Below, piece after piece: positions 1-40,750 of a stretch of 64,000 nt of DNA. The stretch's first letter is position 1. Every line of letters begins with the position of its first letter. A program made the position numbers and the translations under genes. The DNA comes from Thermodesulfobacteriota bacterium (GTDB taxonomy: Bacteria; Desulfobacterota; BSN033; UBA1163), in assembly GCA_047519465.1 (NCBI GenBank), contig JAPVTA010000262.1:11220-75219 (forward strand), written 5' to 3'. Below the pieces are notes generated by a model. That model saw only the letters and a list, made by a program, of their open reading frames with translations, made no database searches and was not told where the DNA came from.

Positions 1-441
1 GTCCCTGCGGCAACCATTTATCGTGAATTGGTTCCTTTCGGGGCGGCCTATCAAAACATCGTCGGCGATTTAGCCGTTTCACCCGAGGGCGTTTTGGCTC
101 ATCTTTCCGGCGGGAATTACGGAGCCGATGAAAATTTGCTTGGCTCGCCATTTCCCCTGGATGCGGCAATGCACGCCGCTTGTGTATGGGGACAACGTTT
201 CAGCGACATTGTCCCCTTTCCCGTAGGTTTTGAAAAGAGGTTGATTTATCAAAAGACAAAAAAAGGAGGCAGCTATCTTGGTCGGGTGGTGCCGGTGAGT
301 ATCGATTGTGAATCGCTCTTGTTCGATGCCTGGATTTATGATTTAAACGGTGTTATTTATGAAGCGATCAGCGGCATTAACATGCGGGATGTCACTCAAG
401 GCCGCCTGCGTCCGCCGCAATGGATTAAAGCAGAATTTTAA
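1..441 (+). CDS. 3' end of a gene running off the window start; hot-dog fold, PKS-type dehydratase-like C-terminal half (partial)
   Basis: Open frame from nt 1 to stop at 439-441; motifs PFPLDAAMHAA and VPFPVGFEKRL resemble the second hot-dog half of PKS/PUFA-type DH domains; no start in window. Confidence 0.4.
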   Translation, partial: VPAATIYRELVPFGAAYQNIVGDLAVSPEGVLAHLSGGNYGADENLLGSPFPLDAAMHAACVWGQRFSDIVPFPVGFEKRLIYQKTKKGGSYLGRVVPVSIDCESLLFDAWIYDLNGVIYEAISGINMRDVTQGRLRPPQWIKAEF

Positions 442-560
442 CCAGCGGGAAAAGCATTTTTGATTTGCCTTTTTGCTTGTTATGCGGGTTCCGTAGATTT
501 GGCTATTATTTTTTTGAACGAAACGTAAAGAGTGGATCATCTTGATCCTACTGGAATTTT

Positions 561-1769
561 TTGAAGAAAGGACTGGACGACGAGGAACTGATGGTGGATG
601 TTTTTGTAGGAGCCAGTAATGCGATCACATCCCTTGGCTTTTCCACAGCCAGGCATGTCGAGCAAGTAAAGGCCAATCAAATCGGTATCAGCATCTATCC
701 GGGCGGAGATCTCTACCCCACCGCTGTTCCGTTGTCTCTTGTTGATACTGGAGAATTACTTGATCTTTTCCAAAAATATCTTTGCAAGACAAGACCGGAT
801 CTTCAACCGGATTTGTTTACCCGCTCGGAAATGCTTCATATTCTGTCGATTTCAGATGTTTTGAAGAGCTCTGGAGTGGATATCACAGATCCTCGGACTC
901 TTATCATCCTGGCCACCCTTAAGGGCAATATGGACCTCATAGGGGGGAACAACCGCCTTCCGGCAATTGACCCAGACCGAGTTTATTTATGGAAATGGGG
1001 CGAGTTTCTCGGGTCTTTCTTTAATAGTTCGAACAAACCCCTTGTGGTTTCTAATGCCTGCATCTCCGGTGTGCTGGCGGTCCTCATTGGGTCACGGCTG
1101 ATCAAAGCCGGCAGGTATGATCACGTGATTGCGGCGGGAGGCGACATTTTGACGGAATTCGCGGTATCCGGCTTTCAATCGTTTCAGTCCCTCAGCCCCA
1201 AACCCTGTAAACCGTTCGATGCGGCCAGAGACGGACTCTCACTCGGCGAAGGCTGCGGTAGCATCGTGCTCAGTCGTGATCATTCATTGTGTGGTATACC
1301 GGAGAAGATCGTCGTTGCAGGAGGGTCTTGCACAAACGATGCCCATCACATCTCAGGCCCTCTCCGAACGGGCGAAAGCTTTTATGTTGCCATCCGCATA
1401 GCTCTGGGAGAGGCATCCTTAGACCCACTGGACATTGATTACATTTCTGCCCATGGAACGGGCACCGATTACTACGACGAGACGGAAGCGAAGGCCTTGT
1501 CATGGGCAGGCTTAGAAAAGGTTCCTGCTAACAGCTTTAAGGGTTATTTCGGACATACCCTCGGCGCAGCGGGAATCATTGAGTCAGCGCTTGCCATTGC
1601 TACAATGAGGAATAATGAATTATTCCGATCGGCAGGGTTTGAAAATCCCGGGACATCACAATCTATTAATATTTTAACGGATCATACGGTCAAAGAAGTG
1701 AATCATTGTTTGAAAACAGCCTCGGGTTTTGGAGGGTGCAATGCGGCGGTCGTCTATAAGAAAATTTAG
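561..1769 (+). CDS. beta-ketoacyl-ACP synthase (FabF/FabB-like elongating KS)
   Basis: 402 aa; Cys-His-His triad motifs NACISG, SAHGTGT, GHTLGAAG, C-terminal GFGGCNAAVV; TTG start at 561 (alternative ATG at 591). Confidence 0.85.
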   Translation: MKKGLDDEELMVDVFVGASNAITSLGFSTARHVEQVKANQIGISIYPGGDLYPTAVPLSLVDTGELLDLFQKYLCKTRPDLQPDLFTRSEMLHILSISDVLKSSGVDITDPRTLIILATLKGNMDLIGGNNRLPAIDPDRVYLWKWGEFLGSFFNSSNKPLVVSNACISGVLAVLIGSRLIKAGRYDHVIAAGGDILTEFAVSGFQSFQSLSPKPCKPFDAARDGLSLGEGCGSIVLSRDHSLCGIPEKIVVAGGSCTNDAHHISGPLRTGESFYVAIRIALGEASLDPLDIDYISAHGTGTDYYDETEAKALSWAGLEKVPANSFKGYFGHTLGAAGIIESALAIATMRNNELFRSAGFENPGTSQSINILTDHTVKEVNHCLKTASGFGGCNAAVVYKKI

Positions 1770-1807
1770 ATTGAGTCTGTCCATAGACTAAGGTTTTCAT
1801 AAGAAGT

Positions 1808-1877
1808 GTCATTCCGGCAAAAGCCGGAATCCAGTCTTTTCAATATCTCTGGATGCCGGATCAAGTCCGGCATGACG
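1808..1877. repeat. REP/MITE-like intergenic hairpin element, copy 1 (short form)
   Basis: GTCATTCCGGCAAAAGCCGGAATCCAGTCTTTT plus TGCCGGATCAAGTCCGGCA hairpin; shares modules with copies at 2839 and 4331. Confidence 0.7.
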
Positions 1878-1887
1878 GAAAAGACGC

Positions 1888-2541
1888 ATGGAATTATTGA
1901 TCACAAGATACATGAAGCTTCAAGACCATCGCGTGTCGCTCAACGGAATCGTTGAATATACATCGGAGGCGGAATCCGTGGATGCATTATTCCGTTCGGT
2001 TTACCGTTATTACAATATCGACTACCCGAAATTTTTCAAAATGGACAACCTCTGCAAGCTCGCTTTTCTGAGCGCCGAGATCTCACTCCAGGGTACTGAC
2101 GTTCTTCAGAAATATCCGGGTGAACAAATCGGGATCATTCTGGAAAATGCCAGCTCCTCACTGGAGTACGACCAAAGACACCAGGAATCCGTCCGTGACC
2201 GGAACCGGTACTTCCCGAGCCCATCCGTGTTCGTCTATACCATTCCAAATATCATGGTCGCCGAGATCGCCATACGGCATAAGGTGAAAGGGGAGAATAC
2301 CGTCTTCATCTCTGAGCAATTTGATCCAGAGTTGATTGATCACTATGTCTCTGAATTGTTCCGTAACCAACAGGTCAACTGTTGCCTCTCCGGCTGGATT
2401 GAATGTTATGTCAATCATTATCAGTCTTTTCTTTTCATTATTGAGCAGGAAGATAAGATCAAAAGATTTAAAGGACTTCAGGAATATGTTATTTTAAACA
2501 CCTTGAACATGGAAAAACTGTATAAAGGAAAATTCATATGA
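1888..2541 (+). CDS. small KS-N-terminal-like / chain-length-factor-like protein (inference)
   Basis: 217 aa, tightly linked between KS and ACP; the CLF-like call is contextual inference by analogy with small KS-N-terminal-like proteins of APE-type clusters, I did not identify a specific KS-like motif in it; translational coupling with ACP (stop overlaps ATG at 2538). Confidence 0.4.
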   Translation: MELLITRYMKLQDHRVSLNGIVEYTSEAESVDALFRSVYRYYNIDYPKFFKMDNLCKLAFLSAEISLQGTDVLQKYPGEQIGIILENASSSLEYDQRHQESVRDRNRYFPSPSVFVYTIPNIMVAEIAIRHKVKGENTVFISEQFDPELIDHYVSELFRNQQVNCCLSGWIECYVNHYQSFLFIIEQEDKIKRFKGLQEYVILNTLNMEKLYKGKFI

Positions 2542-2801
2542 TCGAAGATTTGATTCTCAAACTCAAGAAGGAGATTATTGAAGAACTGAATGTGGAAAAC
2601 ATCACACCGGAAGAGGTGGACGCGGACGCCCCTATTTTCGGGGAGGAGGGGTTAGGCCTTGATTCCATCGATGCGCTGGAGCTCGTGGTGTTACTGGATA
2701 AAAATTACGGTATCAAGATCCAGGCTTCCAAAGAAGGGCGTAAGATATTCCGCTCCGTAAAAACCATCGCCGAATATATACTGGAGCATCAAAAGAAATA
2801 A
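2538..2801 (+). CDS. acyl carrier protein
   Basis: 87 aa, phosphopantetheine attachment motif LGLDSIDALELV. Confidence 0.85.
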   Translation: MIEDLILKLKKEIIEELNVENITPEEVDADAPIFGEEGLGLDSIDALELVVLLDKNYGIKIQASKEGRKIFRSVKTIAEYILEHQKK

Positions 2802-2838
2802 AGCCAGTGTAGTGATTCAGACATTACTTTAGAGAGAC

Positions 2839-2950
2839 CGTCATTCCGGACCCGCCTTGCCGACCCGCAGGCGAGGCAGGCTTGATCCGGAATCCAGTCT
2901 TTTCACTTGGATTCCCGCCCCGTACTTGATACGGGGCGGGAATGACAACC
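2839..2950. repeat. REP/MITE-like intergenic hairpin element, copy 2
   Basis: Contains GTCATTCCGG…CCGGAATCCAGTCTTTTCACTTGGATTCCCGCCCCGTACTTGATACGGGGCGGGAATGACAACC; 3' 60 nt are the reverse complement of the 5' part of copy 3. Confidence 0.8.
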
Positions 2951-3000
2951 CTCATTATCATTGCAAAGAAATGTTAGATTCACTACACTAGTCACAGATT

Positions 3001-4263
3001 ATGAAGTTCACGCTCATTTACCCGAAATGGAAGAAACTCAGGGGCCAGACGGAATTCCACCTTCCTCCGCACGGCCCTGTTGTCTTTGCTGCGACACTGC
3101 CCAGAGACGTGGAAATTACTTTCACCGATGAGAACCTGGAGACAATCGATTTCAGCGATCGGGCAGATCTCATCGGGATCTCCATGATGCTGACGAGCCA
3201 ACTGAAACGGGGTTGGGAAATCGCGGAAGAGTACCGCAGGCGGGGCAGGAAGGTCATCTGCGGCGGCATTGCAACGATGCTTCATGCCGAAGAGACGTCC
3301 CTTCATGCCGATGCGGTCTTCCTCGGGGAGGCGGAAGGACGGATGGAGCAGGTCCTGGATGATTTTCGAAATAACCGACTCCGGAAGGTCTACGACTACC
3401 TGACAGACTTCCCACCCATCGCTTCCGTCGGCACGGCCCGGCGGGACATCCTGAAACGGCAGCTTTACTCCTACAAAGGAATCCAGATGGTCGATCTTTT
3501 TCATGCCTCGCGGGGGTGTCGGTTCGACTGCTACCCATGCTGCATGAGCTTCGTTGGAGGAAGGAAGTTCCGTCCCCGTCCTTTCGAGAAGGTGGTGGAG
3601 GAGCTGACGGCCATTGACAACAACCGTCTGTTTATCGTTGACAATTCTCTATCCCAGGATACGGCATGGCAAAAACAACTCTTCCGTGAGATGATTCCTT
3701 TGAAAAAAAAGTGGTGCTGCCACCCCATCGGGGACGACGATGAAGTCCTCAATCTGGCGGCCCAAGCCGGGGCGTGGTTCGTATATCATGCCATCTTCGA
3801 CACCTCGGACTTCATTCGCAACCGGGTCAAGCGCTATCACGACTTCGGGATCGGGGTGGAGGGAACAATCCTCCTGGGCCTCGACCGCCACACGGAGGAT
3901 TCTATCCACCGCCTCATCGATTTTCTCTTAGAGATAGAATTGGATCTGGCTGAGTTCACTGTATTGACCCCCTTTCCCCACACTCGCGCCTTTACGGACC
4001 TGCAGAGTGAGGGACGGATCCTTTCTTACAACTGGAACGACTATACCTGCGACCAGGTGGTGTTCCAGCCAAAAAAGATGAGCCCGGAGCGTCTTCAGCA
4101 GTTATACGATGAGGCATGGAAAATCTTCTATCGGGAGAAATCCCAACCCTACAGGATGTTCGAACTCTTCGAAAGGGTCATCGACAAGGAAATGGCGGAT
4201 GGTAGCTTCCAGCGGCAGCCTCGGACTCGGGGGAGCCGGAAGTTCGGCCGAGGCGAACCATGA
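3001..4263 (+). CDS. cobalamin(B12)-binding radical SAM enzyme
   Basis: 420 aa; N-terminal B12-binding Rossmann-like region; CxxxCxxC radical-SAM motif in SRGCRFDCYPCC. Confidence 0.85.
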   Translation: MKFTLIYPKWKKLRGQTEFHLPPHGPVVFAATLPRDVEITFTDENLETIDFSDRADLIGISMMLTSQLKRGWEIAEEYRRRGRKVICGGIATMLHAEETSLHADAVFLGEAEGRMEQVLDDFRNNRLRKVYDYLTDFPPIASVGTARRDILKRQLYSYKGIQMVDLFHASRGCRFDCYPCCMSFVGGRKFRPRPFEKVVEELTAIDNNRLFIVDNSLSQDTAWQKQLFREMIPLKKKWCCHPIGDDDEVLNLAAQAGAWFVYHAIFDTSDFIRNRVKRYHDFGIGVEGTILLGLDRHTEDSIHRLIDFLLEIELDLAEFTVLTPFPHTRAFTDLQSEGRILSYNWNDYTCDQVVFQPKKMSPERLQQLYDEAWKIFYREKSQPYRMFELFERVIDKEMADGSFQRQPRTRGSRKFGRGEP

Positions 4264-4330
4264 TGTTATGAAGGCTAAACGGAAACAGCAGTGTGGTTAA
4301 TCTAACAGTTTCTCTACAATAATAACGAAG

Positions 4331-4460
4331 GTTGTCATTCCCGCCCCGTATCAAGTACGGGGCGGGAAATCCAGAGTTGAAAGGACTGGATTTCCCCTTG
4401 TCAAGCACCCCGTGTCAAGCACGGGGCAGGCTAAGGCAGGCTTATCAAGTCCGGAAAGAC
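4331..4460. repeat. REP/MITE-like intergenic hairpin element, copy 3 (inverted relative to copy 2)
   Basis: GTTGTCATTCCCGCCCCGTATCAAGTACGGGGCGGGAAATCCAG… and GGCAGGCTTATCAAGTCCGG module. Confidence 0.8.
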
Positions 4461-4572
4461 AGTCTCGGTAAAGTAATTTTTGAATGACATCAGTAGCGAT
4501 TGGGAAAAATTGCTTAAGAGCTGGGGCAAAGATATCTCGCTGACTGTAATCACCTCATGGATGGTGTCATAA

Positions 4573-4815
4573 ATGCAAAAAGAGGAAGCCCTCAAAAAGG
4601 TATCCGAATATTTGGTGACACAATTTGAAATTCCTTCGGAAAAGATAAGTCCTGATGCAAACCTGTTTAAAGATCTCGAGATGGACAGTATTGATGCCTT
4701 AGATTGGTTCGCGGCAATGCAGTCGGAGATCGGTCTTCCTATTATCGAGAAAGAGCTCAAGAGGATAAGAACCGTTCAGGACGTGGTAGACTATGTGGTC
4801 CGGAATTTGAAATAA
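4573..4815 (+). CDS. acyl carrier protein (second copy)
   Basis: 80 aa, LEMDSIDALDW Ser-containing 4'-PP motif. Confidence 0.85.
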   Translation: MQKEEALKKVSEYLVTQFEIPSEKISPDANLFKDLEMDSIDALDWFAAMQSEIGLPIIEKELKRIRTVQDVVDYVVRNLK

Positions 4816-4816
4816 C

Positions 4817-5206
4817 ATGCCGATATCCCCCGAGAGATGGCTGCCTCTGAAGGATCTCCGGATGACCGCCGAAGGCCGTTGGGAATCCATGGTACGATTC
4901 GAACCCTCTTCGGAATGGTTCTCAGGTCACTTTGATGAATGCCCTCTGGTGCCTGGCGTGGCGCTCCTTGCCTTGGCGGCTGAAATGGTCAAAAGACAAG
5001 GTCTTGAGCAGGGACGTCGTATTGAGGTTTCCGGCTTTTCCAGGGTGAGGTTCAAGCAGTTAGTCTTTCCAGATGAGGAACTGCAAATCTCTGTGGCAGC
5101 CATGCCCTTAGGGCCCGAGGCAAAGCTTGATTTTCATATCACTTGCCGCGGAGATACAGTTGCCCAGGGTTTATTGAAAGCCCGTGAAGAAGTTCCCCGC
5201 CGATGA
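4817..5206 (+). CDS. FabA/FabZ-like 3-hydroxyacyl-ACP dehydratase (hot-dog)
   Basis: 129 aa; SGHFDECPLVPGVALLALAAEM matches FabZ/ApeI-type active-site region; start 1 nt after ACP stop. Confidence 0.75.
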   Translation: MPISPERWLPLKDLRMTAEGRWESMVRFEPSSEWFSGHFDECPLVPGVALLALAAEMVKRQGLEQGRRIEVSGFSRVRFKQLVFPDEELQISVAAMPLGPEAKLDFHITCRGDTVAQGLLKAREEVPRR

Positions 5207-5262
5207 AGAAGCGATAAAACAAATCCTGCGAAAACGGGTTCAGGTCGTCTGAGAGAGTAAGG

Positions 5263-6156
5263 ATGAAGGCTTTCGTTCACGAGACGCTCATCAGGGTTTC
5301 TCTTCTCCTGGGCTCCTGGCCCATCCGGTTCTTCGCCTGGTGGATCGCCACGGGATACTTCCTCTTTCTTTCTTCGAGGAGAAGATCAAGTATCTGCCTC
5401 TATGAAGTGATCTTTCCCGAAAAATCGCGATGGTATTATCTTTATTGCACCTGGCGCCAGTTTCACTCCTACGCAGCCACTTTTGCGGAGCGGATTGAGT
5501 TCGATAGAAATAAACGGCTAACCACCTCGACCCAGGGAAGGGAAAACCTAGTAGAGGTGGCCAGAAGAGGGAGAGGGGGAGTGATCCTCATGTCCCATCT
5601 GGGCAGTTTCGAGATTGCTGCAGGCGTGTTTCGAGAAGTGGGGCCCAAGCTTCTTTTGATCATGGGTGAAAAGGAAGCAAAACAGGTGGCCCGGGATCAG
5701 CGCGAAGCCATGAAGGCGCGAGGAATCCATATTCAGGTGGCCGCTGCAGGAGAGGAGTTTCCCTTCGCCGGGGTGGAGGCCATTCAGTTCGTGAGAGAAG
5801 GAGGCTTCGTCTCTGTCGCCGGTGACCTCGTTTGGACCGAACAGCGCTCCCGTCTGCCGGTAACTCTCTTCGGGCATGAGGTGGGCCTCTCCGCAGGTCC
5901 TCATCTCCTCGCCCTGGTTTCAAACGCGCCCCTCTTCACGATGTTTGCTTTTCGAGCTGAAAAAGGAAAATACCTGATCACGATGTCTTCTCCGAGGGAG
6001 GTGAAGGCAACATCCCGTTCTGAAAGAAGTGCGGCCCTCCAAGCGAGCGCACAGGCATACGCCAATGCTCTGGAAGAGATGGTGCGCCAGCACCCTTTCC
6101 AGTGGTACATCTTTGAGCCCTTCTTTGGACCCGTAGCGGCTGATACGAGGAAATAA
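5263..6156 (+). CDS. lysophospholipid/lipid A acyltransferase family (LpxL/HtrB-like)
   Basis: 297 aa; membrane N-terminus; C-terminal HPFQWYIFEPFF typical of LpxL-family (ApeD-like) acyltransferases. Confidence 0.7.
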   Translation: MKAFVHETLIRVSLLLGSWPIRFFAWWIATGYFLFLSSRRRSSICLYEVIFPEKSRWYYLYCTWRQFHSYAATFAERIEFDRNKRLTTSTQGRENLVEVARRGRGGVILMSHLGSFEIAAGVFREVGPKLLLIMGEKEAKQVARDQREAMKARGIHIQVAAAGEEFPFAGVEAIQFVREGGFVSVAGDLVWTEQRSRLPVTLFGHEVGLSAGPHLLALVSNAPLFTMFAFRAEKGKYLITMSSPREVKATSRSERSAALQASAQAYANALEEMVRQHPFQWYIFEPFFGPVAADTRK

Positions 6157-6202
6157 AGCTCCCCGCCCTAAAGGGCAGGGCTTTCCGGCAAGGTGGTTTG
6201 AT

Positions 6203-6250
6203 CATATTGTGCTCTTTGACCCCTTCCTGAAGGACAGGGCTTGCAGGGCA
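6203..6250. repeat. GC-rich about 48-nt dispersed repeat, copy 1 (CATATTGTGC…TTGACCCC…CTGAAGG…GGGCTTGC.GGG)
   Basis: About 80% identical to 51661-51709; a related shorter motif CCCCGCCCTAAAGGGCAGGGC lies at 6159-6185. Confidence 0.55.
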
Positions 6251-6339
6251 CTTTTCGGTCAAATCTGGGCTTTTTTAGCTTCGAATCCAGAAGAAGATTT
6301 GCGACGGCTCGGACGAGTGGAAAATAAGGAGTCATCTTA

Positions 6340-8511
6340 TTGGAACGTAGGCGGGTCTTTATCACTGGAATGGGAATCATAAGTTCTCTTGGCCAAGGGG
6401 TGGGCCGTCATGTCGATTCTTTGAAAAAGAATTGTTCCGGAATTGAACCGCTTGCACTATTCACCCCGTCGCCGGGCAATCTCCTTCCAGCCGGTGAAAT
6501 TCCCAATTTTAAGCAAACCCTGAACGTTCCTCGGACACACGAACTTGCTTTCCTGGCTGCCCAGGAGGCGCTTTCAACTACTCGGGTCATCCTCGATGCA
6601 ATCATCCTCGGCACGACGACTGGCGGCATGCCGTTTACTGAAGAGCTTTTGAGAAAAAATCAAAAAGATGCGGATCAATACAAATATCATTCAACCTCCT
6701 CAGTGGCTGAATTTCTTGCGGGCGTTCTGCGCTGCAGTGGTCTTGTCCTCACGATCACGACGGCGTGTTCATCGGGCGCGGTTGCGATCAAGCTAGCCTA
6801 TGAGCTGCTCTCCTCTGGCAAAGCGAATCGTGTGCTCGCCGGCGGTGCGGATGCACTCTGCCGGCTCACTTATTATGGATTCAATTCATTGCAGCTCATT
6901 GACCCTTCCGGTGCGCGTCCTCTTGACCTTGACAGAAACGGCATGACGGTGGGCGAAGGTGCTGCGATGCTCCTCTTGGAAGCGGGAGAATCAAGTCCTG
7001 ACAACGCGATTGCAGAGATTTTAGGCGGAGGGCTATCCTGCGACGCGTATCATCCCACAGCACCGCATCCAGAAGGCAAGGGAGCTCTCGCTGCTATGGA
7101 AAAGGCCTTAGAAGCCGCGGGCATTATTCCTGCGGATATCGAATATATCAATCTCCACGGAACCGGAACCAAGGACAATGACCTCGCCGAAGCAAAGGCG
7201 ATTCATTCCGTTTTTGGTGATCATCTTCCTCCCCTGTCATCAGTGAAAGGAGCTACCGGCCACTCCCTGGCAGCTTCAGGCGCGATCGAATCTGTCATCT
7301 GCGCGGCAGCCATTCAGGAAGGACTCATCCCGGCAAATACGGGCTGCGTTAACCCGGACCCGGAATTGAATTTAAAACCGGCTCTCGCTCCCCTTGAGCA
7401 GAAGGTTGCCGTAGCCCTGTCCAACTCCTTCGGGTTTGGTGGCAACAACGCTTGCCTTGTCCTGGCCGATCCTCGGTCCAAGCACGAAAGACAGAAGCGG
7501 GCCGTATCATTTGGATTTGAAGTTTTAGGGTGCGCTTGCGTCACCGGAGCAGGCAACCTGGAGCAGACATTGAAGAATTTAGATGAAGGAAAAACCTGCA
7601 GCGGAACTCTGCCTCTTGCTGATCTATCAAAGAAGCTCCCAGTCCGTGAGGTCCGTCGACTCAAGCGGTTACCAAGGCTTGCGCTTGCCCTGGCCACGGA
7701 AGCGTCTGAAAGCTCACGGCCATCTCAAACACCATCATCTATCTTCTTCGGCACATCATGGGGTCCGCTATCCGAGACATATCACTTTCTCACGAAGCTC
7801 TATGAATCAAATGAGCAGTTTGCGAGCCCCACCGAATTTGTCGGCTCAGTGCACAATGCTCCCGCAGGCCAGGTGGCGATGATGCTAAACGCAACCGGTC
7901 CCAACATCACCACCACCGGCGGCGATTACTCCTTTGAACAGGCGTTATTTGCCGCGTCCCTGGCTGTGTGCGCCAGCGATCACAGCGTGCTGGTCATGGG
8001 AGCTGACGAACACCACGAGATTTTGTCTCCACTGTTTGACAAATCGGTTTGGATCGGCTCGAATCCGTCCGACGGCGGCGGGGCGCTCATGATACGCAAA
8101 ACAGAAAAGGTATCCGGATTACGGATCGCGGTTATTTTTTTTGAAAATACCAGCAACAATCCGTCTATCGTTCAATCGCTCCTTCACCACCTTGGAGAAT
8201 CGGATGAGATCCGATCGAAATACGGTGCCGTTTTTGTCGGAATTCCTGCGGGAGAGCGAGCGAACTGTGAAAAGCAGGTCCGTGAAATTATTTCAGGCGC
8301 AGATTTCAACGGCCCGGTCGTTGATTTCCGTAAATTCACCGGTGAATTCGGGTCGGCCACTGCTGCGGCAGCGGCCCTTGCGGTAAGATTCGTACAGAAC
8401 GGGATAATCCCTGGCTATCTTTCAGGCGGCGCGGAAAGCCGCCTCAACGGAAGGGGAATACTCCTCCTGGGTCTGGGAAGGTTCCTCACCGCCGTCGAAG
8501 TGTTACCGTAA
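6340..8511 (+). CDS. fused ketosynthase - KS-like (CLF-type, Cys-less) two-domain protein
   Basis: 723 aa; N-domain has TACSSG / HGTGT / GHSLAASG; C-domain is KS-like (HNAPAGQVAMMLNATGPN) but active-site Cys replaced (TTTGGDYS); TTG start with AAGGAG RBS 8 nt upstream. Confidence 0.75.
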   Translation: MERRRVFITGMGIISSLGQGVGRHVDSLKKNCSGIEPLALFTPSPGNLLPAGEIPNFKQTLNVPRTHELAFLAAQEALSTTRVILDAIILGTTTGGMPFTEELLRKNQKDADQYKYHSTSSVAEFLAGVLRCSGLVLTITTACSSGAVAIKLAYELLSSGKANRVLAGGADALCRLTYYGFNSLQLIDPSGARPLDLDRNGMTVGEGAAMLLLEAGESSPDNAIAEILGGGLSCDAYHPTAPHPEGKGALAAMEKALEAAGIIPADIEYINLHGTGTKDNDLAEAKAIHSVFGDHLPPLSSVKGATGHSLAASGAIESVICAAAIQEGLIPANTGCVNPDPELNLKPALAPLEQKVAVALSNSFGFGGNNACLVLADPRSKHERQKRAVSFGFEVLGCACVTGAGNLEQTLKNLDEGKTCSGTLPLADLSKKLPVREVRRLKRLPRLALALATEASESSRPSQTPSSIFFGTSWGPLSETYHFLTKLYESNEQFASPTEFVGSVHNAPAGQVAMMLNATGPNITTTGGDYSFEQALFAASLAVCASDHSVLVMGADEHHEILSPLFDKSVWIGSNPSDGGGALMIRKTEKVSGLRIAVIFFENTSNNPSIVQSLLHHLGESDEIRSKYGAVFVGIPAGERANCEKQVREIISGADFNGPVVDFRKFTGEFGSATAAAAALAVRFVQNGIIPGYLSGGAESRLNGRGILLLGLGRFLTAVEVLP

Positions 8512-8663
8512 AAATAGGAAGGCTTTCCTCAGGTCAACAAATACCGTTAGAGTCCCCTATCCGGGACTTGACTATGTAACAGTAGCAAAGTTATTAAAAG
8601 GATGATTCATAAAGTTTGTGAAACCCAACGACTCCGAAACAGAGTGGTCAAATAGGATATAAC

Positions 8664-10403
8664 ATGTACGATAATCTGACGAAGGGCCTGGCCGCAGGCT
8701 ATGAAAGGATTGTGGCGTGGGCCGATATCCTTGACCGGATCAATGTCTATCCTGTACCCGACGGTGACACCGGCCGCAATCTTGTCATTACCCTGGGCGC
8801 CTGCAGGAATATCAACGAAAATCCCGATTCACTGAGCCGAGAGATCCTGCTTTCGGCCAGGGGTAATTCCGGAAACATTGCTGCCGGTTTTTTTGCAGGG
8901 TTCCTCACCTGCAAGGACTTGTCGTCTCTTCCCCTATCCGCCGAGGCCGGCCGTAATCTCGCGTACCGAGCTGTTCCCAACCCTCAACAAGGAACCATGA
9001 TCTCTCTGTTTGATACCCTGGTCGCATCTCTGAAGAAGACCCCTCCCGAAGAGACAGGGATATGGGTGGAATCAATAATCCATGACATGGAAGAGACGGT
9101 TAGGAATACCAGAGAACAATTGCTCGAACTCAGGGAGGCTGGGGTGGTTGATGCAGGAGCCCTCGGCATGCTCGTCTTCTTCGATCCTCTGTTGAATACT
9201 CTGGCTGGCCGCACGGTCAGGCCCTCTCTCTTCACGGATGATCTGAAGGATTCCTTCAACATCTCCGGAACGTGGCAGGACCGAAAATACCATGGCTACT
9301 GCCTTGACGTGTTGCTCAAGATCGAGCACGAAGAGCAGGAAGTTGTGAAGCATATCATGGATGTGGGAGAATCGTTGGTCGCCATGCCCCATGGCGAGTG
9401 CCTCAAAGTACACCTCCATGCCACGGACAGAGAGAGGGCAAGACAAGACCTCACCGCCGTCGGAGCCATCCTGAGCTGGGCCGAAGATGACCTTGCTCAG
9501 CAGACCTTCCGGTTCGGCGAAGCGAGAAAAAATCAGGCCATCCATATCATGACGGATGCGGCTGGCTCCATCACAAGGGATCTGGCTCAGAGCCTTGGAA
9601 TTACTCTCCTCAACAGTTATATCGCCATCGGGAATCGTTTTCTCCCTGAGACCTACGTAGATCCTTCCCAGCTCTTTGCCGCCATGAAGGCTGGAGCCAA
9701 AGTCTCTACGGGCCAAGCCTCAACCGTGGAGCGACAAGAGTGCTATAACAACGTCATGAAAATCCATGACCGCGTCCTCTATCTCTGTGTGGGCTCTTTC
9801 TACACCGGCAATTATGATGTGGCTATCAAATGGAAGGCTGAGAATGATCCCGATGACAGGATGACCATCATTGATACAGGGATCGCCTCGGGCAAGCTCG
9901 GTCTCGTAGCCAGGGCTGCTGCAGAACTCTCCCTCACTGTCAGCGACCCTTTAAAGGTCATCGCCTTCGCCAGGGGTGCGATTCAGAATGTACAGGAATA
10001 TATCTTCCTGGACACGCTGCAATTCTTAGCTGCCGGCGGTAGAATCTCAAAGACCAGTGCCTTTTTTGGCGATGTCCTTCGTATAAAACCGATCGTCAGT
10101 CCCTATCCTGACGGGGCTCGGAAGATCGGGGTAGTTAGAAACCTCAGAGATCAGGTAAAATTCGCCTTCCGTCGTCTTGAACAGGACATTTTAAAAGATC
10201 AAAGGGCGGCTCTGCTTCTCGAGTACTCAGACAACAAGGAGTGGCTTGAGGGGGAAATCAAACCGGAGATAGAGCGCAGGTTTCCTTTGATGCAAATCAT
10301 CGTACAACCTCTCTCCCTTACCACTGCTGCCCATGTGGGCCCGGGCTCCTGGGGCATGGCCTTTCTCAAAGAAGACTCCCAAAAAGGCGACCCATATGTA
10401 TGA
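8664..10403 (+). CDS. FakA-like fatty-acid kinase (DAK2 domain + DegV-like C-terminal domain)
   Basis: 579 aa; N-terminal INVYPVPDGDTGRNL matches DAK2 domain of FakA/YloV; C-terminal half DegV-like. Confidence 0.7.
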   Translation: MYDNLTKGLAAGYERIVAWADILDRINVYPVPDGDTGRNLVITLGACRNINENPDSLSREILLSARGNSGNIAAGFFAGFLTCKDLSSLPLSAEAGRNLAYRAVPNPQQGTMISLFDTLVASLKKTPPEETGIWVESIIHDMEETVRNTREQLLELREAGVVDAGALGMLVFFDPLLNTLAGRTVRPSLFTDDLKDSFNISGTWQDRKYHGYCLDVLLKIEHEEQEVVKHIMDVGESLVAMPHGECLKVHLHATDRERARQDLTAVGAILSWAEDDLAQQTFRFGEARKNQAIHIMTDAAGSITRDLAQSLGITLLNSYIAIGNRFLPETYVDPSQLFAAMKAGAKVSTGQASTVERQECYNNVMKIHDRVLYLCVGSFYTGNYDVAIKWKAENDPDDRMTIIDTGIASGKLGLVARAAAELSLTVSDPLKVIAFARGAIQNVQEYIFLDTLQFLAAGGRISKTSAFFGDVLRIKPIVSPYPDGARKIGVVRNLRDQVKFAFRRLEQDILKDQRAALLLEYSDNKEWLEGEIKPEIERRFPLMQIIVQPLSLTTAAHVGPGSWGMAFLKEDSQKGDPYV

Positions 10404-11604
10404 AAAAATCTTACGCGGCATGAAAGGTCTTCTGATGCTTGGACTTTTCGGCCTGTTTCTCCTCGGCATCTTCCTTGAATTACTGATCATTCTTCCGGTC
10501 CTCTGGGTCCTCAACAGAATCCTTGGGCCTAAGCATTACCGGATGCAGTGGACGATCCGTATCCTCGTCGGCCTGTGGCTCTTCTTCCTGAGAGCGTGCG
10601 GGCTACTCAAGGCGAGGGAGTTGAAAGGGAAGCCTTTCGATGGACCGTGTGTGATTGTTTCGAACCACCCCGGCCTCTTCGACGTGCTCTTCCTGATTCG
10701 GGATATCCCACGCATGTCTGTCATGGTCAAGCAATCCCTGGCAAGGAAGCTTCCCCTCGGCCCTGTCTTTCGCTCTGCAGGGTATGTCCTCTCCCCTGAC
10801 TTCGAGCAGAGGGGACCGTTCCAGTCCCTGGATGAGGCTATCGAGAAGATCGACATGGGGTACAAGTTCATGATCTTTCCTGAGGCCACTCGATCCCCTA
10901 AAGGAGACCTGGGCAGGTTCAGCGCCGGCCCCTTCATGCTTGCAAGGCTATCGAATGTCCCATTGCAGCCGGTGTTTGTCAGAAACGATCCACCTTTTCT
11001 CCCGAAGGAAGACAAATGGTACTTTCCTCCCTCCCGGGTCTCGACCCTTGAGATCGAATTCTGGGAGCCGACGGCCCCTCCGCAAGCAGGACAGGAGCGG
11101 CAGTTTGCCAGGGATCTCGAGGCTCGGTACAGGGAGGCGTTGGGCTTAACCTCTAACCAACTCTTTCCAGCTGAACCTTTGATCCCGCATCGTCTTGGCA
11201 TGAGGCTCATAGACCGGGTGAAGAGACCGACCTGGAACGCTTTGCAGGCTGAGACGATTGTTACTGAGGAATGGCCCTTGTACAACAACGGAGAGGTAAG
11301 TTCCATCCTATGTATTGAACTGGCCGCCCAAGCCATCTCTGCCCTGAGCACATGGCGTCGAGGTAAAGGGGCTGGACCGCGGGTCGGATTGCTCGTTGGC
11401 ATCAAAGAAGCGGAATTCTCAAGGTCGAGCGTTCCTGTAGGGACCAGACTCCACATCGAGATTGAGGAGCTTTCGCACGTTGGGGACTATGCCGTGTTTG
11501 AAGGCAAAGTAAGATCAGATTCGGACTCCTTGTGTAAAATCATTATCCAGGTGATGGAACCTGAAGAGACCCTATCGAACCTAAAGACCAGACAGAGAAT
11601 CTAA
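10396..11604 (+). CDS. PlsC-family acyltransferase fused to C-terminal hot-dog domain
   Basis: N-terminal TM helices; NHxxxxD motif (VSNHPGLFD), FPEATRS motif; C-terminal ~130 aa hot-dog-like; ATG overlaps FakA-like stop (ATGTATGA). Confidence 0.75.
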   Translation: MYEKILRGMKGLLMLGLFGLFLLGIFLELLIILPVLWVLNRILGPKHYRMQWTIRILVGLWLFFLRACGLLKARELKGKPFDGPCVIVSNHPGLFDVLFLIRDIPRMSVMVKQSLARKLPLGPVFRSAGYVLSPDFEQRGPFQSLDEAIEKIDMGYKFMIFPEATRSPKGDLGRFSAGPFMLARLSNVPLQPVFVRNDPPFLPKEDKWYFPPSRVSTLEIEFWEPTAPPQAGQERQFARDLEARYREALGLTSNQLFPAEPLIPHRLGMRLIDRVKRPTWNALQAETIVTEEWPLYNNGEVSSILCIELAAQAISALSTWRRGKGAGPRVGLLVGIKEAEFSRSSVPVGTRLHIEIEELSHVGDYAVFEGKVRSDSDSLCKIIIQVMEPEETLSNLKTRQRI

Positions 11605-11630: not shown

Positions 11631-12365
11631 ATGCCTACGCTGTCTAAACAGATTGCCCTCGTGACGGGCGGGGGCCGGGGAATTGGACGCGCGATCTGCC
11701 TGGAGCTGGCAAAGAACGGCTGTTACGTGATTATCAATTTCCGCTCCAACACAAAGGCCGCTGAAGAGACCCTGGGGTTGATCCATCAAGTTGGAGGAAA
11801 GGGTGAGATCGTCCGTTTCGACGTCGCCAATCAGGAAGAAACTGAGCGAAACATCGAAACCCTCCTGACACGCCATGATGCGATCGATATTCTGGTAAAC
11901 AATGCAGGAGAAACTGCGGACGGTCTTTTTGTCTTGATGCCTCCCGACGAATGGGTGAAAGTGCTCAACACCTCCTTGCAAGGATTCTACAATGTGACGA
12001 AACCCGTTCTGATGAAGATGGTCAACAGAAAGCATGGTTTTATTGTTGCCATCTCTTCTGTGTCTGCAAGGCTCGGCCACCGTGGTCAGACAAATTACTC
12101 GGCAGCCAAGGCAGGTCTTGAAGGAGCCTGTCGATCCCTTGCCTCGGAGGTTGCTCGTCTTGGTATTCGGGTCAATGTCGTGGCGCCGGGCTTGATTGAA
12201 ACGGAGATGCTTCAGGCTGTTCCCAGGGATATGATAAAACAGATCATACCGATGGGCCGAGTAGGCCTGCCTGAAGAGGTAGCCAAGGTGGTTCGTTTCT
12301 TGTGCTCTGAGGATGCCTCTTACATTACCGGCCAGGTCATATCCGTCAATGGGGGAATGATCTAA
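11631..12365 (+). CDS. 3-oxoacyl-ACP reductase (FabG-like SDR)
   Basis: 244 aa; TGGGRGIGRAI NAD(P)-binding motif, Y-x3-K catalytic pair (NYSAAKAG). Confidence 0.9.
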   Translation: MPTLSKQIALVTGGGRGIGRAICLELAKNGCYVIINFRSNTKAAEETLGLIHQVGGKGEIVRFDVANQEETERNIETLLTRHDAIDILVNNAGETADGLFVLMPPDEWVKVLNTSLQGFYNVTKPVLMKMVNRKHGFIVAISSVSARLGHRGQTNYSAAKAGLEGACRSLASEVARLGIRVNVVAPGLIETEMLQAVPRDMIKQIIPMGRVGLPEEVAKVVRFLCSEDASYITGQVISVNGGMI

Positions 12366-12369
12366 AAAA

Positions 12370-12397
12370 GTAGGGAACGCATATATGCGTTCCCTAC
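12370..12397. promoter_or_regulatory. perfect 28-bp palindrome GTAGGGAACGCATAT/ATGCGTTCCCTAC at FabG-like stop / LolA-like start
   Basis: Exact inverted repeat with no spacer; right arm contains the LolA-like ATG (12385). Confidence 0.6.
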
Positions 12398-13023
12398 TGA
12401 AGGGATTGGCATTGAAAGGATTCCTTTCCATCACACTAGTAATAATAGCGGGAGTTTTCTTCGTCGAAACAGCATCGGCCCAGGATTGGACCTCTCTGAA
12501 AGAAACTTTCAGAAACATTCGATCCGTGAAGGCGGATTTCCTCCAGAAGAGATACCTCAAAATCCTAATAAGACCTCTCCTGTCTGAGGGAAAGCTCTTT
12601 TTTTATATCCCTGATTCTCTGAGATGGGAGTACCTCAACCCGCTGCGAAGCGTGATGCTGGAAAAGGGGAGTACCGTCCAGGTTTACAACTTCTCTGAGG
12701 GTACGTGGAAGCCAGAGATGACGCAGGCTGTTGAGGCAAGGCGGATGGTACTTGCGGAAGTCAGTCATTGGTTTCAGGGCCGTTTCGATGAAAGCACCGC
12801 ATTCAAGCACCTTTATTCTCCCGGACCTCCTGCGCGAGTCACGATGGTTCCTGGGGAAGGGATCAACAGGTTTATCCAGCGGATTGAGATCGTTCTGTCT
12901 GTGAGGCCAGGGGTCATTGATCGGGTGGAGATAGAGGAACCCGGAGGCTCCCGGACCACAATTGAATTCAGGAACGTGGAGATCAATTCCAGCTTCCCTT
13001 CAGAGGTCTTCGAGAAACCATGA
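12385..13023 (+). CDS. LolA-like outer-membrane lipoprotein carrier family protein
   Basis: 212 aa with signal peptide (…FFVETASA/QD); LolA-like size and context (APE-type clusters carry LolA-like genes). Confidence 0.55.
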   Translation: MRSLLKGLALKGFLSITLVIIAGVFFVETASAQDWTSLKETFRNIRSVKADFLQKRYLKILIRPLLSEGKLFFYIPDSLRWEYLNPLRSVMLEKGSTVQVYNFSEGTWKPEMTQAVEARRMVLAEVSHWFQGRFDESTAFKHLYSPGPPARVTMVPGEGINRFIQRIEIVLSVRPGVIDRVEIEEPGGSRTTIEFRNVEINSSFPSEVFEKP

Positions 13024-13676
13024 TTCGCGCCAAGGCCCTTGATGTCTGTCTTCTGGGATTTCTTGTCCTCTGCGTCGGGTGTGCCTCTCCATCCAAGAAA
13101 ACCCTGGGCCCGGGCTCACCGGATGACGTGCCAGGCTGTTATGCCGTTTTTCCGGGAGAGCCCTGGGAGTCGGTGCATCGGATTGAGGCCACCGTCAGAG
13201 GAGAAGGTTCTTCCTCGCTGCTTGGAGTCACCAAAGGCGAACCATCGGAGCGAAGGCTTCAGAGCCTTTTGCTCACCCCCGAAGGGTTCATCCTGTTCGA
13301 TGCGGAACTCTCGGGGGATGGAATCGCTGTCCGAAAGGCAATGGCTCCCTTCGATTCACCGGCTTTTGCCAGAGGGCTGATGGAGGATGTGTCTCTCCTC
13401 TTTCTCCCTCCGCAGGGCAAGCCCGCCGCATGGGCGAAGGAAACGGATGGAACGATGATTTGCAACTGGGAAAACCATGACGATTCCCATACCGAGATTT
13501 CGGGATCGATGGAGAGCGGCTGGCGAATCCTCCGCCAGAACAAAAATGGGAAGGTCATAAAGGAAATCGTCTTGAACGGACCTTTTGTCAACGGTCTTGC
13601 GTCGCGCATCGAGCTCCGCACATTCAGACCGGCGCCGTACAGGCTCAGGATGACTTTGGTCCAACCGTCTCCTTAA
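13020..13676 (+). CDS. lipoprotein of unknown function (LolB/DUF3261-like position)
   Basis: 218 aa; lipobox LVLCVGCAS; overlaps LolA-like stop (ATGA). Confidence 0.45.
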   Translation: MIRAKALDVCLLGFLVLCVGCASPSKKTLGPGSPDDVPGCYAVFPGEPWESVHRIEATVRGEGSSSLLGVTKGEPSERRLQSLLLTPEGFILFDAELSGDGIAVRKAMAPFDSPAFARGLMEDVSLLFLPPQGKPAAWAKETDGTMICNWENHDDSHTEISGSMESGWRILRQNKNGKVIKEIVLNGPFVNGLASRIELRTFRPAPYRLRMTLVQPSP

Positions 13677-24885: not shown

Positions 24886-25053
24886 TAGGAGGTGAGGGAT
24901 AGGGTTTGGGATTCATGAGATCTGCATTCAAGAAAGGAGGCGGGGACTATCACTCTTAAACGGAGGAGGTGGTGGGAGCGACGTTGGCATCGAAGTGTTT
25001 TTGCTTGTGCTAAAGGTCAACATATGCAACAAAATTCCCTAAGGAGGTCAGAG

Positions 25054-39109: not shown

Positions 39110-39700
39110 TCAAGGGTCGTCGCAGGTGATCAGAGTGATCACATGTCCATTCCCTTCGGCGTGTCTGACAGGGTAAGTCTTTTCTTGATACTTCATCATC
39201 CCATCTTCCTCTCCCACGCTAACTACCTCTACTTCCCGGATAGCTTGAAATAGATCAAGACCCAATGCCTTGGCTGCTGCCTCCTTGGTGGTCCAGGCGC
39301 GAGTGCCGGCCCTCTGAGGGCCCAAACCGGATAGTAAGATAAGGTCTCTTTCCCTAGGTGACATAAAGAGATGCTTCGTCCTTATTACTTTCTCTGAAAC
39401 CATCTCAAGGTCAACGCCAATCCGATGCCTGTACGCAACTGCTGCTATTAGCTGTCCACAATGGGAGACCGAGCAATAGATTCCGCTCTCGTTGAGGCAA
39501 GGCTTTACGTCATCAGGGCTAAGGGTTTCAATCGTCCGGTCAGGCCTGTCCTTTTCTACAAGGTTAAGTTGGCGGGCCAGTCTCTTCAGAGCGACTCTCG
39601 CCGCGGCAAATCCTTTCCGCCTTCGTGGACCCATTCTCATCGCCCTTGCGGCTTCGCGCGGCGTAAAGAGATTCTCCTCGATAAGGGAGATGGTTTCCAT
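39110..39700 (-). CDS. 4'-phosphopantetheinyl transferase (Sfp/EntD-type)
   Basis: Motifs SVSHCG…GVDLE and WTTKEAAAKALG; start assigned to internal Met (METISL) because the ORF N-terminal extension runs through a GC hairpin. Confidence 0.7.
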   Translation of the reverse strand: METISLIEENLFTPREAARAMRMGPRRRKGFAAARVALKRLARQLNLVEKDRPDRTIETLSPDDVKPCLNESGIYCSVSHCGQLIAAVAYRHRIGVDLEMVSEKVIRTKHLFMSPRERDLILLSGLGPQRAGTRAWTTKEAAAKALGLDLFQAIREVEVVSVGEEDGMMKYQEKTYPVRHAEGNGHVITLITCDDP

Positions 39701-39835
39701 ATCGAGGAGGACCATCCCAAGACAGGCCGCCCGCAGCCGCTCGATCCCAGGCCATATGGGGGAATCGTTCGTAAGAGAAGAAGCAGAAATAAAGTCTGGA
39801 CTTATTTCGTTCAAGGCCGAACTCAGCCTCCAGCA

Positions 39836-39882
39836 CCCCTCACCCTCCCCTCTCCCCACTGGGGAGAGGGGAGGGTGAGGGG
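39836..39882. other. perfect 22-bp-stem GC-rich hairpin (CCCCTCACCCTCCCCTCTCCCC-ACT-GGGGAGAGGGGAGGGTGAGGGG)
   Basis: Exact reverse-complement arms with 3-nt loop, in divergent intergenic region between PPTase (-) and thioesterase (+). Confidence 0.8.
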
Positions 39883-40312: not shown

Positions 40313-40750
40313 GTGAGAAGAATGCCTCAATCTGTTTCGGCCAGTATCACGATGAAGGTGCCTTATCACGACGTGGACCTGATGCGGGTCGTCTGGCATG
40401 GGAACTACTTAAAATACTTCGAGGTGGCCCGGCAGGCACTTTTTAGAGAATACGGAGTGGACTTACAGCGCTACATGGAGGAGAAAAGGTACGTATTTCC
40501 GATAGTCCGCTCCACGATCAAGCATATCTGGCCTTTGAGATTCGATGAAGAGTTCACGTGCACGGCAATGCTCAAGGAAGCTCGCGTTAGGATCGTCTTA
40601 AATTTCGACATAAAGTTAACCTCTAACGGAAGACTCTGCGCCAAAGGCTGGACCGAGCAGGCAGCGGTTCTATTACCGGAGATGGAAATAGTCTTTCAGA
40701 TCCCCGAGGAAATCCAGAAGGCTTTCTACGAGGATGAACAACTGAAATGA
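40313..40750 (+). CDS. acyl-CoA/acyl-ACP thioesterase (4HBT/YbgC-like hot-dog)
   Basis: 145 aa; YHDVDLMRVVWHGNYLKYFE matches 4HBT active-site region. Confidence 0.75.
   Translation: MRRMPQSVSASITMKVPYHDVDLMRVVWHGNYLKYFEVARQALFREYGVDLQRYMEEKRYVFPIVRSTIKHIWPLRFDEEFTCTAMLKEARVRIVLNFDIKLTSNGRLCAKGWTEQAAVLLPEMEIVFQIPEEIQKAFYEDEQLK

Follow-up and report, generated by a model that had tools for sequence, protein, structure and literature searches.

Here, we report that ORF A, a gene in a 64,000-nucleotide stretch of Thermodesulfobacteriota DNA (contig JAPVTA010000262.1; the whole stretch is called the window below), joins a FakA-type catalytic part and a FakB/DegV lipid-binding part in one chain, and that it is a conserved, dedicated component of a specialised lipid cluster in Thermodesulfobacteriota, Spirochaetota and SAR324. 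Fatty acid kinase, as known so far, consists of two proteins with which Gram-positive bacteria scavenge host fatty acids. The cluster, judged by its gene content, appears to belong among the aryl-polyene (APE)/flexirubin-like type II polyketide synthase lipid clusters. We hold it slightly better than an even bet, at a probability of about 0.55, that ORF A is the self-contained single-chain fatty-acid kinase of this APE-like cluster and re-activates an acid released by a thioesterase for use in lipid assembly.

The start of ORF A was taken as the first start codon downstream of the preceding stop, and the protein and its domains are placed as follows.

8664..10403, plus strand: ORF A, a single-chain fatty-acid-kinase-like protein of 579 amino acids (aa) made up of FakA_N (Dak2), FakA middle and DegV/FakB domains (Pfam, NCBIfam, Protein Data Bank (PDB) matches, AlphaFold2, Foldseek).
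8751..9191, plus strand: Dak2/FakA_N ATP-binding domain, aa 30-176 (Pfam, 55.5 bits).
9294..9506, plus strand: FakA middle domain (FakA_M; dimerisation / Zn or catalytic Cys-His-His), aa 211-281 (PF21645, 31.3 bits against a cut-off of 24.9).
9540..10370, plus strand: full DegV/FakB fatty-acid-binding domain, aa 293-569 (PF02645, 135 bits against a cut-off of 27, profile positions 2-279 of 280).

The signature NVYPVPDGDTG, by which an earlier note on this DNA had recognised a FakA-like kinase, is present at residues 27-37, and the Dak2 domain was confirmed by Pfam. The same note described the C-terminal domain as DegV-like. Profile searches uphold the DegV homology, but the domain belongs in full to the DegV/FakB family, whose NCBIfam model TIGR00762 is passed with 148.8 bits against a cut-off of 99.7, and not a likeness of the FakA_C kind. 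The FakB-docking domain FakA_C (PF13684) itself had no Pfam match in ORF A, and the DegV domain stands in its place. In a PDB sequence search, the best solved relatives of the N-terminal part were the FakA_N structures 8vip and 7rm7 (E ~1e-24); these and Streptococcus suis FakA (7w7h_A) cover residues 12-186 and 12-280. The fatty-acid-binding DegV/FakB structures 1pzx, 2dt8, 4x9x, 5woo and 7w7h_E match residues 293-569 end to end, palmitate-binding 1pzx included. Whereas FakB is a stand-alone protein of ~280 aa that shuttles between membrane and FakA, the DegV domain of ORF A is covalently joined behind FakA_N and FakA_M. The statement that no FakB/DegV partner lies in the window is therefore right for separate genes, as tblastn with the Dak2 and DegV halves of ORF A found no second copy of either domain in the 64 kb, but overlooks the C-terminal domain of ORF A itself, which is the partner.

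The residues known to act in FakA and FakB are retained. ADP-Mg2 is bound in Staphylococcus aureus FakA by Asn32, Asp38, Asp40, Thr41, Asn82 and Asp185, and the middle domain contributes Cys240, His282 and His284 (PMC9136124). Alignment to structures equates N27, D33, D35, T36, N68 and D163 of ORF A with S. aureus N32, D38, D40, T41, N82 and D185; these nucleotide/Mg residues span aa 27-163, N27 lying just ahead of the start of the Pfam Dak2 match. C213, H250 and H252 align with C244, H289 and H291 of S. suis FakA. The fatty-acid carboxylate is bound in S. suis FakB2 by Thr61, Ser93, Arg170 and His264 (PMC10848957), to which T349, S378, R460 and H557 of ORF A correspond by shared motifs (T-x-Q-x-S, GGRxSK and AH-GPG) and spacing rather than by residue-by-residue alignment with 7w7h_E. 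Among 42 family members 33-46% identical to ORF A, every one of these positions was invariant except S378, where Ser is the majority residue but falls outside the lists of positions conserved in at least 90%. An AlphaFold2 model computed from this 42-sequence alignment (mean predicted local distance difference test score 91.3, predicted template modelling (TM) score 0.90) predicts the DegV two-lobe fold, which would enclose a lipid tunnel, for the C-terminal domain. Foldseek matched the C-terminal half to DegV/FakB structures, most of them described as fatty-acid-bound, with target-normalised TM scores of 0.77-0.87 (0.80-0.87 for the fatty-acid-loaded ones), and the N-terminal domain to FakA_N with a TM score of 0.80.

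Membership of the dihydroxyacetone-kinase subunits DhaL/DhaM, which the earlier note had named as the grouping that would speak against a FakA-like kinase, was considered and rejected. The first Mg ligand is Asn in FakA and Asp in DhaL, which uses three Asp for Mg (PMC9136124). In ORF A this ligand is Asn27, the FakA signature, and there was no DhaK or DhaL among its solved relatives at E <= 1e-3, nor a second Dak2 domain in the window by tblastn, where no search aimed at DhaK was made. The protein is placed on the FakA side by its FakA_N relatives, by the Asn27/Asp33/Asp35 site and by Cys213/His250/His252 of the middle domain. FakA_N and the middle domain are sufficient for catalysis, the role of FakA_C being FakB binding only (PMC9136124), so the exchange of FakA_C for a fused FakB makes mechanistic sense: FakA_C would be dispensable because FakB is covalently attached.

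The conservation of these residues also bears on a rather different use of the protein, to which we give little chance. The DegV domain could serve as a lipid carrier or regulator, shuttling lipid or acid to export (LolA-like, MMPL), while ATP use by Dak2 controls loading and release or signals lipid status. Export genes do lie near the kinase, and some DegV proteins act in membrane homeostasis and have no clear kinase role (PMC10138225). Both the phosphoryl-transfer and the carboxylate-positioning residues are conserved over deep divergence, however, which is hard to explain without catalysis.

The association of the kinase with the cluster was assessed in 80 loci, one per species, from Thermodesulfobacteriota (Syntrophales, Smithella, Desulfobacterales), Spirochaetota (Leptospirales) and SAR324, in which the cluster proteins were mapped by tblastn. 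At least one other cluster gene was found within ±10 kb of the kinase in 78 of the 80, which settles in the affirmative the linkage to lipid genes that the earlier note had proposed to check in relatives. Immediately upstream of the kinase, meaning on the same strand and <700 nt away, stood a 4HBT thioesterase in 49 of 74 loci and an LpxL-type acyltransferase in 14; the gene immediately downstream was a GT2 in 34 of 72 loci, PlsC-like in 13 and LpxL-like in six. The gap between the thioesterase and kinase matches had a median of 6 nt (53 loci). The two genes thus abut, and in most relatives the thioesterase gene is translationally coupled to the kinase. The commonest order was ApeP, FabG, LolA, putative lipoprotein, B12-binding radical-SAM enzyme, aromatic ammonia-lyase, thioesterase, kinase, GT2 and MMPL, with AMP-ligases nearby, while the order LpxL, kinase, PlsC was limited to the lineage of the window and a few others. 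PlsC is not a conserved partner of the kinase, whose tightest neighbour is the upstream 4HBT thioesterase; the kinase-PlsC pair that the earlier note had picked out does not hold as a conserved unit. One locus (L097, CAYRSQ010000009.1), with a kinase 49-50% identical to ORF A, has a bacterial-type cluster in spite of its label 'uncultured archaeon', which is probably a binning or labelling error.

A housekeeping kinase for exogenous fatty acids that merely adjoins the cluster is hardly credible against this background. More distant Dak2-DegV fusions (24-33% identity) do occur in unrelated contexts, but the persistence of the kinase in the cluster in 78 species loci of three phyla, usually abutting the thioesterase, strongly disfavours this explanation.

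If ORF A is the cluster's own kinase, the ApeK-like 4HBT thioesterase of the cluster (40313-40750 here), the most likely source of the free acid, would free it from an acyl-thioester. The DegV tunnel would hold the acid with its carboxylate exposed at T349/S378/R460/H557, and the Dak2 domain (N27, D33, D35, T36, N68, D163) would pass the gamma-phosphate of ATP to it, giving an acyl-phosphate. For each acyl-thioester turned into an acyl-phosphate, thioesterase and kinase together would then spend one ATP. The product may enter the lipid-assembly stage encoded by the flanking LpxL-like, ApeD-like and ApeJ-like (GT2) genes, or alternatively be used by housekeeping PlsY or PlsX. For Escherichia coli, release of the APE acid ahead of its attachment is a proposed function of ApeK (PMC8253772). 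The analysis shows the domain architecture, the conserved residues, the fold, the synteny and how the fusion arose; kinase activity, the identity of the acid, the hand-off from thioesterase to kinase and the fate of the acyl-phosphate are what we infer.

Several points weigh against this scheme. Curated whole-protein scores of ORF A for FakA and YloV are far under their cut-offs: NF038248 (FakA) gave 105 against 975, and TIGR03599 (YloV) 158 against 396, with only profile positions 5-338 of 530 aligned; the FakB1 equivalog cut-off of NCBIfam was also missed by far. No report of biochemical activity for any Dak2-DegV fusion was found in the literature, and, as cited in PMC8253772, Xenorhabdus ApeK failed to hydrolyse APE intermediates bound to acyl carrier protein (ACP) in vitro. 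An acyl-phosphate-using enzyme (PlsY or PlsX) is not visible in the cluster, the thioesterase is not adjacent to the kinase in the window, and hydrolysis followed by re-activation spends ATP that direct transfer from ACP would spare. Only tentatively do we extend the scheme to an ATP-driven relay, in which the coupled thioesterase and the single-chain FakA-FakB kinase may convert a carrier-protein-bound acyl chain made by the cluster to acyl-phosphate, which would be the donor for a specialised, probably outer-membrane, polyene lipid in anaerobic diderms.

The gene behind the kinase, ORF B, encodes an acyltransferase fused to a hot-dog domain, and a second hot-dog protein is encoded further upstream.

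10396..11604, plus strand: ORF B, 402 aa, a membrane-anchored ApeD-like HX4D acyltransferase followed by an ApeP-like hot-dog domain (Pfam, NCBIfam, database protein P0121).
10639..10980, plus strand: LPLAT/PlsC-type acyltransferase domain, ORF B aa 82-195 (PF01553, 58.8 bits).
11154..11155, plus strand: site of a 43-nt deletion, relative to the related loci L001 and L003, that fuses the PlsC and ApeP genes (DNA alignment).
11164..11568, plus strand: ApeP-like FabZ-fold hot-dog domain, ORF B aa 257-391 (best PDB match 6qsr_B, FabZ alignment, conservation across loci).
4817..5206, plus strand: ApeI-like hot-dog protein, probable partner of the ApeP-like domain (PDB matches, segment conservation).

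A longer, mechanically called ORF B begins at 10333. The real start is 10396, as in the 402-aa database protein P0121, which is 100% identical over its full length. The overlap of the ORF A stop with the ORF B start, reported earlier, is correct: the ATG at 10396 and the TGA at 10401-10403 share the 8-nt stretch ATGTATGA (10396-10403). So is the description of ORF B as a PlsC-type protein with NHxxxxD and FPEATRS motifs and a C-terminal hot-dog, given the PF01553 match, NHPGLFD (HX4D) at 90-96, FPEATRS at 161-167 and the hot-dog at 257-391. TIGR00530, the model of true 1-acyl-glycerol-3-phosphate (G3P) acyltransferases, is not passed (56.4 bits against 102.95).

In the route proposed in the earlier note, the PlsC-type enzyme would use the acyl-phosphate made by the kinase directly, on a glycerol-phosphate-like acceptor, as a private route parallel to PlsX/PlsY. 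The 8-nt start/stop overlap in the window speaks for such a route, as do the 13 loci of 72 with PlsC right after the kinase, where the two matches often overlap by 4 nt. The pair is lineage-specific, however, and a GT2 follows the kinase more often (34 of 72). HX4D enzymes of the PlsC type are known to take acyl-ACP or acyl-CoA thioesters; the enzymes that use acyl-phosphate, PlsY and PlsX, are unrelated to them. For Xenorhabdus, an ACP is the proposed source of the chain that ApeD takes (bioRxiv 10.1101/2020.12.19.423268). The donor for the acyltransferase of ORF B is presumably acyl-ACP. With neither synteny nor known family chemistry behind it, direct use of acyl-phosphate by this enzyme is improbable.

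Most close relatives encode the acyltransferase (273-276 aa) apart from the ApeP-like protein (155 aa), in two overlapping genes, as do L001-L003 (276 aa and 155 aa). The recent 43-nt deletion took out the acyltransferase stop and the ApeP start, joining the two genes in the lineage of the window. Fused or junction-spanning acyltransferase-ApeP proteins were found in 17 database clusters (P0121-P0137) with at least three junction types: some are joined directly, others by a short read-through linker or by a linker of 50-60 residues that keeps the ApeP N-terminus. An assembly frameshift as the origin of the fusion was rejected on account of the several independent sources and these junction types. 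The pattern suggests repeated, independent fusion of the two neighbours. Since the fusion is real and recurrent, the two proteins may act next to each other at the membrane.

This hot-dog domain is unlikely to be part of an acyl-transfer route. Its best PDB match was 6qsr_B (E 2e-4), described in the PDB table only as FabA/FabZ dehydratase, with no organism named; we take 6QSR to be the ApeI:ApeP complex of Xenorhabdus doucetiae. The protein at 4817-5206 matched 3esi_A best (E 1.3e-05), then 1u1z_A (FabZ) and, third, 6qsr_A (E 3.8e-04). In ORF B the Pfam score for ApeP-like was 18.7, under the cut-off of 27, while the unfused homologues are listed with PF22817 and PF22818 in precomputed Pfam annotation. 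As to the catalytic residues of the hot-dog, a check proposed in the earlier note, the central-helix Glu (IELAAQ) is kept, E-x-x-A-Q being invariant across 23 loci, but the FabZ catalytic His is absent (NNGEVSS, variable in relatives; GE at the GH position of 6qsr_B). Conversely, the ApeI-like protein has kept the His of GHF and has Ala at the Glu position. The ApeP-like domain and the ApeI-like protein would thus form a heterodimer with one composite His/Glu active site, and a composite dehydratase site would assign the hot-dog to chain elongation, not acyl transfer. The domain is probably an ApeP-like dehydratase subunit of the machinery that builds the chain, joined to the acyltransferase by the recent 43-nt deletion.

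An aromatic amino-acid ammonia-lyase gene was found just upstream of the thioesterase-kinase pair in ~35 of the 80 loci, the more distant ones (for example L147 8038-9588 and L120 7944-9494). The protein scored 520 bits with PF00221, and HutH, BagA and FlxA-like were all under cut-off. The gene order ammonia-lyase, thioesterase, kinase keeps alive a role in starter activation, in which the kinase would phosphorylate an aryl or short priming acid (coumarate from the ammonia-lyase, or hydroxybenzoate released by the thioesterase) for loading towards ACP, in place of an ApeH-type AMP-ligase or together with one. The classical activity of 4HBT enzymes, as hydroxybenzoyl-CoA thioesterases, would suit this role. 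Many of the same loci have AMP-ligases as well as the kinase, however (two in L147), and the lineage of the window has no ammonia-lyase yet keeps the kinase between two acyltransferases. In addition, the DegV domain has its full length and lacks none of the parts that form the tunnel in long-chain fatty-acid binders, and we know of no enzyme except PlsX that moves acyl-phosphate onto such ACPs. Starter activation is thus unlikely, if the least so of the alternatives to a kinase serving lipid assembly. A long chain at the assembly stage is favoured by the full-length lipid-tunnel DegV domain and by the position of the kinase among acyltransferase and GT2 genes.

The remaining cluster genes of the window, including ketosynthase (KS) and chain-length-factor (CLF)-like genes, lie in two blocks.

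28..4815, plus strand: PS-DH fragment, KS, 217-aa protein, ACP, B12-binding radical-SAM enzyme, ACP (Pfam).
5263..6156, plus strand: LpxL/HtrB-type acyltransferase (PF03279; Pfam, NCBIfam, synteny).
6340..8511, plus strand: KS fused to a second KS-like (CLF-like, PF13723) domain, 723 aa (Pfam).
11631..13676, plus strand: FabG-type ketoreductase (FlxB-like), LolA-like carrier (LolA2_flexi-like) and 218-aa protein, at the ApeQ, ApeL and ApeN positions (Pfam, NCBIfam).
39110-39901, minus strand: phosphopantetheinyl transferase.
40313..40750, plus strand: 4HBT (YbgC/FadM-like) thioesterase, ortholog of the thioesterase that abuts the kinase in related loci (49/74).
40782-42017: KS of the second block, adjoining the 4HBT thioesterase.
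42231-42956, minus strand: GT2, best family match GalNAc-phosphate transferase.

In most close relatives it is the LpxL-type gene that directly precedes the kinase, whereas in the window the KS-CLF gene lies between them. The two KS-like domains of that gene are likewise fused in some relatives and are two separate KS genes in other loci. The 217-aa reading frame (1888-2541, plus strand) lies between the first KS and an ACP, in the place expected of a CLF; it had no Pfam or NCBIfam match, and homologues were detected in the closest relatives only. The 218-aa protein at the ApeN position gave no family match either and is a putative lipoprotein by assumption. A beta-lactamase-fold protein follows it on the plus strand. 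The B12-binding radical-SAM enzyme (3001-4263, plus strand) is the most conserved protein of the cluster, with 66-73% identity where the kinase has only 45-50%, and its best curated matches (HpnJ, ladderane-type radical-SAM, MJ_1487) were all far under cut-off. A ladderane-type label for the cluster, prompted by this gene, was rejected in favour of the APE-like one, as TIGR04072 gave 43.7 bits against 360 and the Rattray 2009 paper mentions no kinase.

The second block at 39-43 kb (phosphopantetheinyl transferase, 4HBT thioesterase, KS and GT2) is 2-5 kb from the first half of the cluster in relatives; in the window its thioesterase is 30 kb from the kinase. Between the halves lie ~25 kb of apparently unrelated genes (13684-39100), encoding the beta-lactamase-fold protein, a helix-turn-helix-cupin regulator, an acetyl-CoA-synthetase-like ligase, an isochorismatase, PPDK-like proteins, an aldehyde dehydrogenase and, judged from one periplasmic-binding-protein match at 25024-26277, amino-acid ABC transport. 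What lies beyond the left edge of the window was reconstructed from a metagenome relative, L012. There, positions 2692-9570 hold a polysaccharide deacetylase, an ACP, two more radical-SAM genes, two KS and a second 4HBT thioesterase. The cluster thus continues upstream, and the window cuts it. Genes for supply of an aryl starter (ammonia-lyase, or a chorismate-derived acid with an AMP-ligase) were found neither in the 64-kb window nor in the 10 kb upstream in L012, and MMPL was seen in relatives only, not among the cluster genes of the window. The APE-like identity rests on the 6qsr matches, the FlxB-like ketoreductase, the LolA2_flexi-like carrier and the GalNAc-phosphate-transferase-like GT2, joined in relatives by ammonia-lyase, MMPL and AMP-ligase genes.

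A scan of 1.84 billion cluster representatives returned 305 homologues of ORF A at E <= 1e-30. By our estimate, ~90 of the best 150 were 550-620 aa long and aligned over residues about 5-570; Dak2, FakA_M and DegV were present in all ten that were scanned for domains. The homologues fall into two tiers, one of 33-46% identity, which is the subfamily of the window, and one of 24-33%, which includes Eubacteriales proteins in unrelated gene contexts. Three scanned fusions of 24-27% identity had DegV Pfam scores of 233-271 bits, far above that of ORF A. Two distant fusions were located, one beside DUF1295, DUF2177 and heliorhodopsin in a Eubacteriales metagenome-assembled genome (L166 8001-12218) and one beside a DUF374 acyltransferase-like gene (L164 6644-9824). 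A preprint (bioRxiv 10.1101/2021.02.16.431466) credits Dak2-DegV fusions to Erni et al. 2006 and places them beside heliorhodopsin genes in Firmicutes and Chloroflexi, an association with which the L166 neighbourhood agrees. The Dak2-DegV architecture as such is therefore not new. We found no link in the literature between a Dak2/DegV kinase and polyketide, aryl-polyene, flexirubin or xanthomonadin clusters; what is new here is the recruitment of a fused fatty-acid kinase into a specialised lipid cluster.

Fatty-acid-kinase chemistry would thus be contained in one polypeptide that is conserved in a specialised lipid cluster of uncultured anaerobes of three phyla and is physically linked with a thioesterase in most of these organisms. 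If active, the fused enzyme would be a minimal, self-sufficient fatty acid kinase, handy for structural and mechanistic study, and would imply acyl-phosphates in secondary lipid assembly. A concrete role could also follow for the thioesterase step, a poorly understood part of aryl-polyene pathways, and, if the relay exists, a possible answer to the purpose of ApeK-type enzymes. Should the relay be true, it would be the first biosynthetic role of a fatty-acid kinase beyond fatty-acid scavenging and the first such role outside Firmicutes. With an inactive enzyme, the finding shrinks to a correction of annotation: a fused FakB, and a PlsC-hot-dog that arose by recent deletion.

Compared with FakA/FakB of Firmicutes (S. 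aureus and S. suis; 7w7h, 7rm7, 8vip, 5woo), ORF A shares the Dak2-type ATP domain with its Asn/Asp/Asp Mg site, the Cys-His-His middle domain and the DegV fold with a Thr/Ser/Arg/His carboxylate site. It differs in being one polypeptide instead of two, with FakB in place of FakA_C (PF13684), in its diderm anaerobic host, and in a context of polyketide-lipid synthesis instead of fatty-acid scavenging. The fusions beside heliorhodopsin genes have the same three domains but are only 24-33% identical and stand in unrelated contexts. With DhaK/DhaL, ORF A has in common an EDD-fold substrate-holding domain that works with a Dak2 nucleotide domain, and a published description of FakA calls it an evolutionary mimic of the dihydroxyacetone kinase system (PMC10848957). 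The Mg site there is made of three Asp, whereas Asn is the first ligand in ORF A, and the substrate domain of ORF A is a lipid-tunnel DegV. ORF B resembles PlsC/AGPAT in its HX4D and FPEGTR-like motifs and its N-terminal membrane anchor, but stays under the TIGR00530 cut-off (56 vs 103), is cluster-specific like ApeD and is fused to a hot-dog in this lineage.

With the APE/flexirubin clusters of E. coli CFT073 and Xenorhabdus doucetiae (ApeA-R), the cluster shares KS/CLF, two ACPs, a ketoreductase and the putative ApeI/ApeP dehydratase pair, as well as an ApeD-like LPLAT, an ApeJ-like GT2, an ApeK-like 4HBT thioesterase, a LolA-like protein and a putative lipoprotein at the ApeN position; MMPL, AMP-ligase and ammonia-lyase are shared by relatives of the window cluster. 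ApeD (LPLAT), ApeJ (GT2/acyltransferase) and ApeK (thioesterase) are assigned to attachment of the chain to a glycerol-phosphate-GalNAc anchor (PMC8253772; bioRxiv 10.1101/2020.12.19.423268). The canonical ApeA-R lists of the same two sources have neither a Dak2-DegV kinase nor a B12-binding radical-SAM enzyme. Both are conserved additions in the clusters described here, as are, further, the LpxL-type acyltransferase and, upstream in relatives, two more radical-SAM genes.

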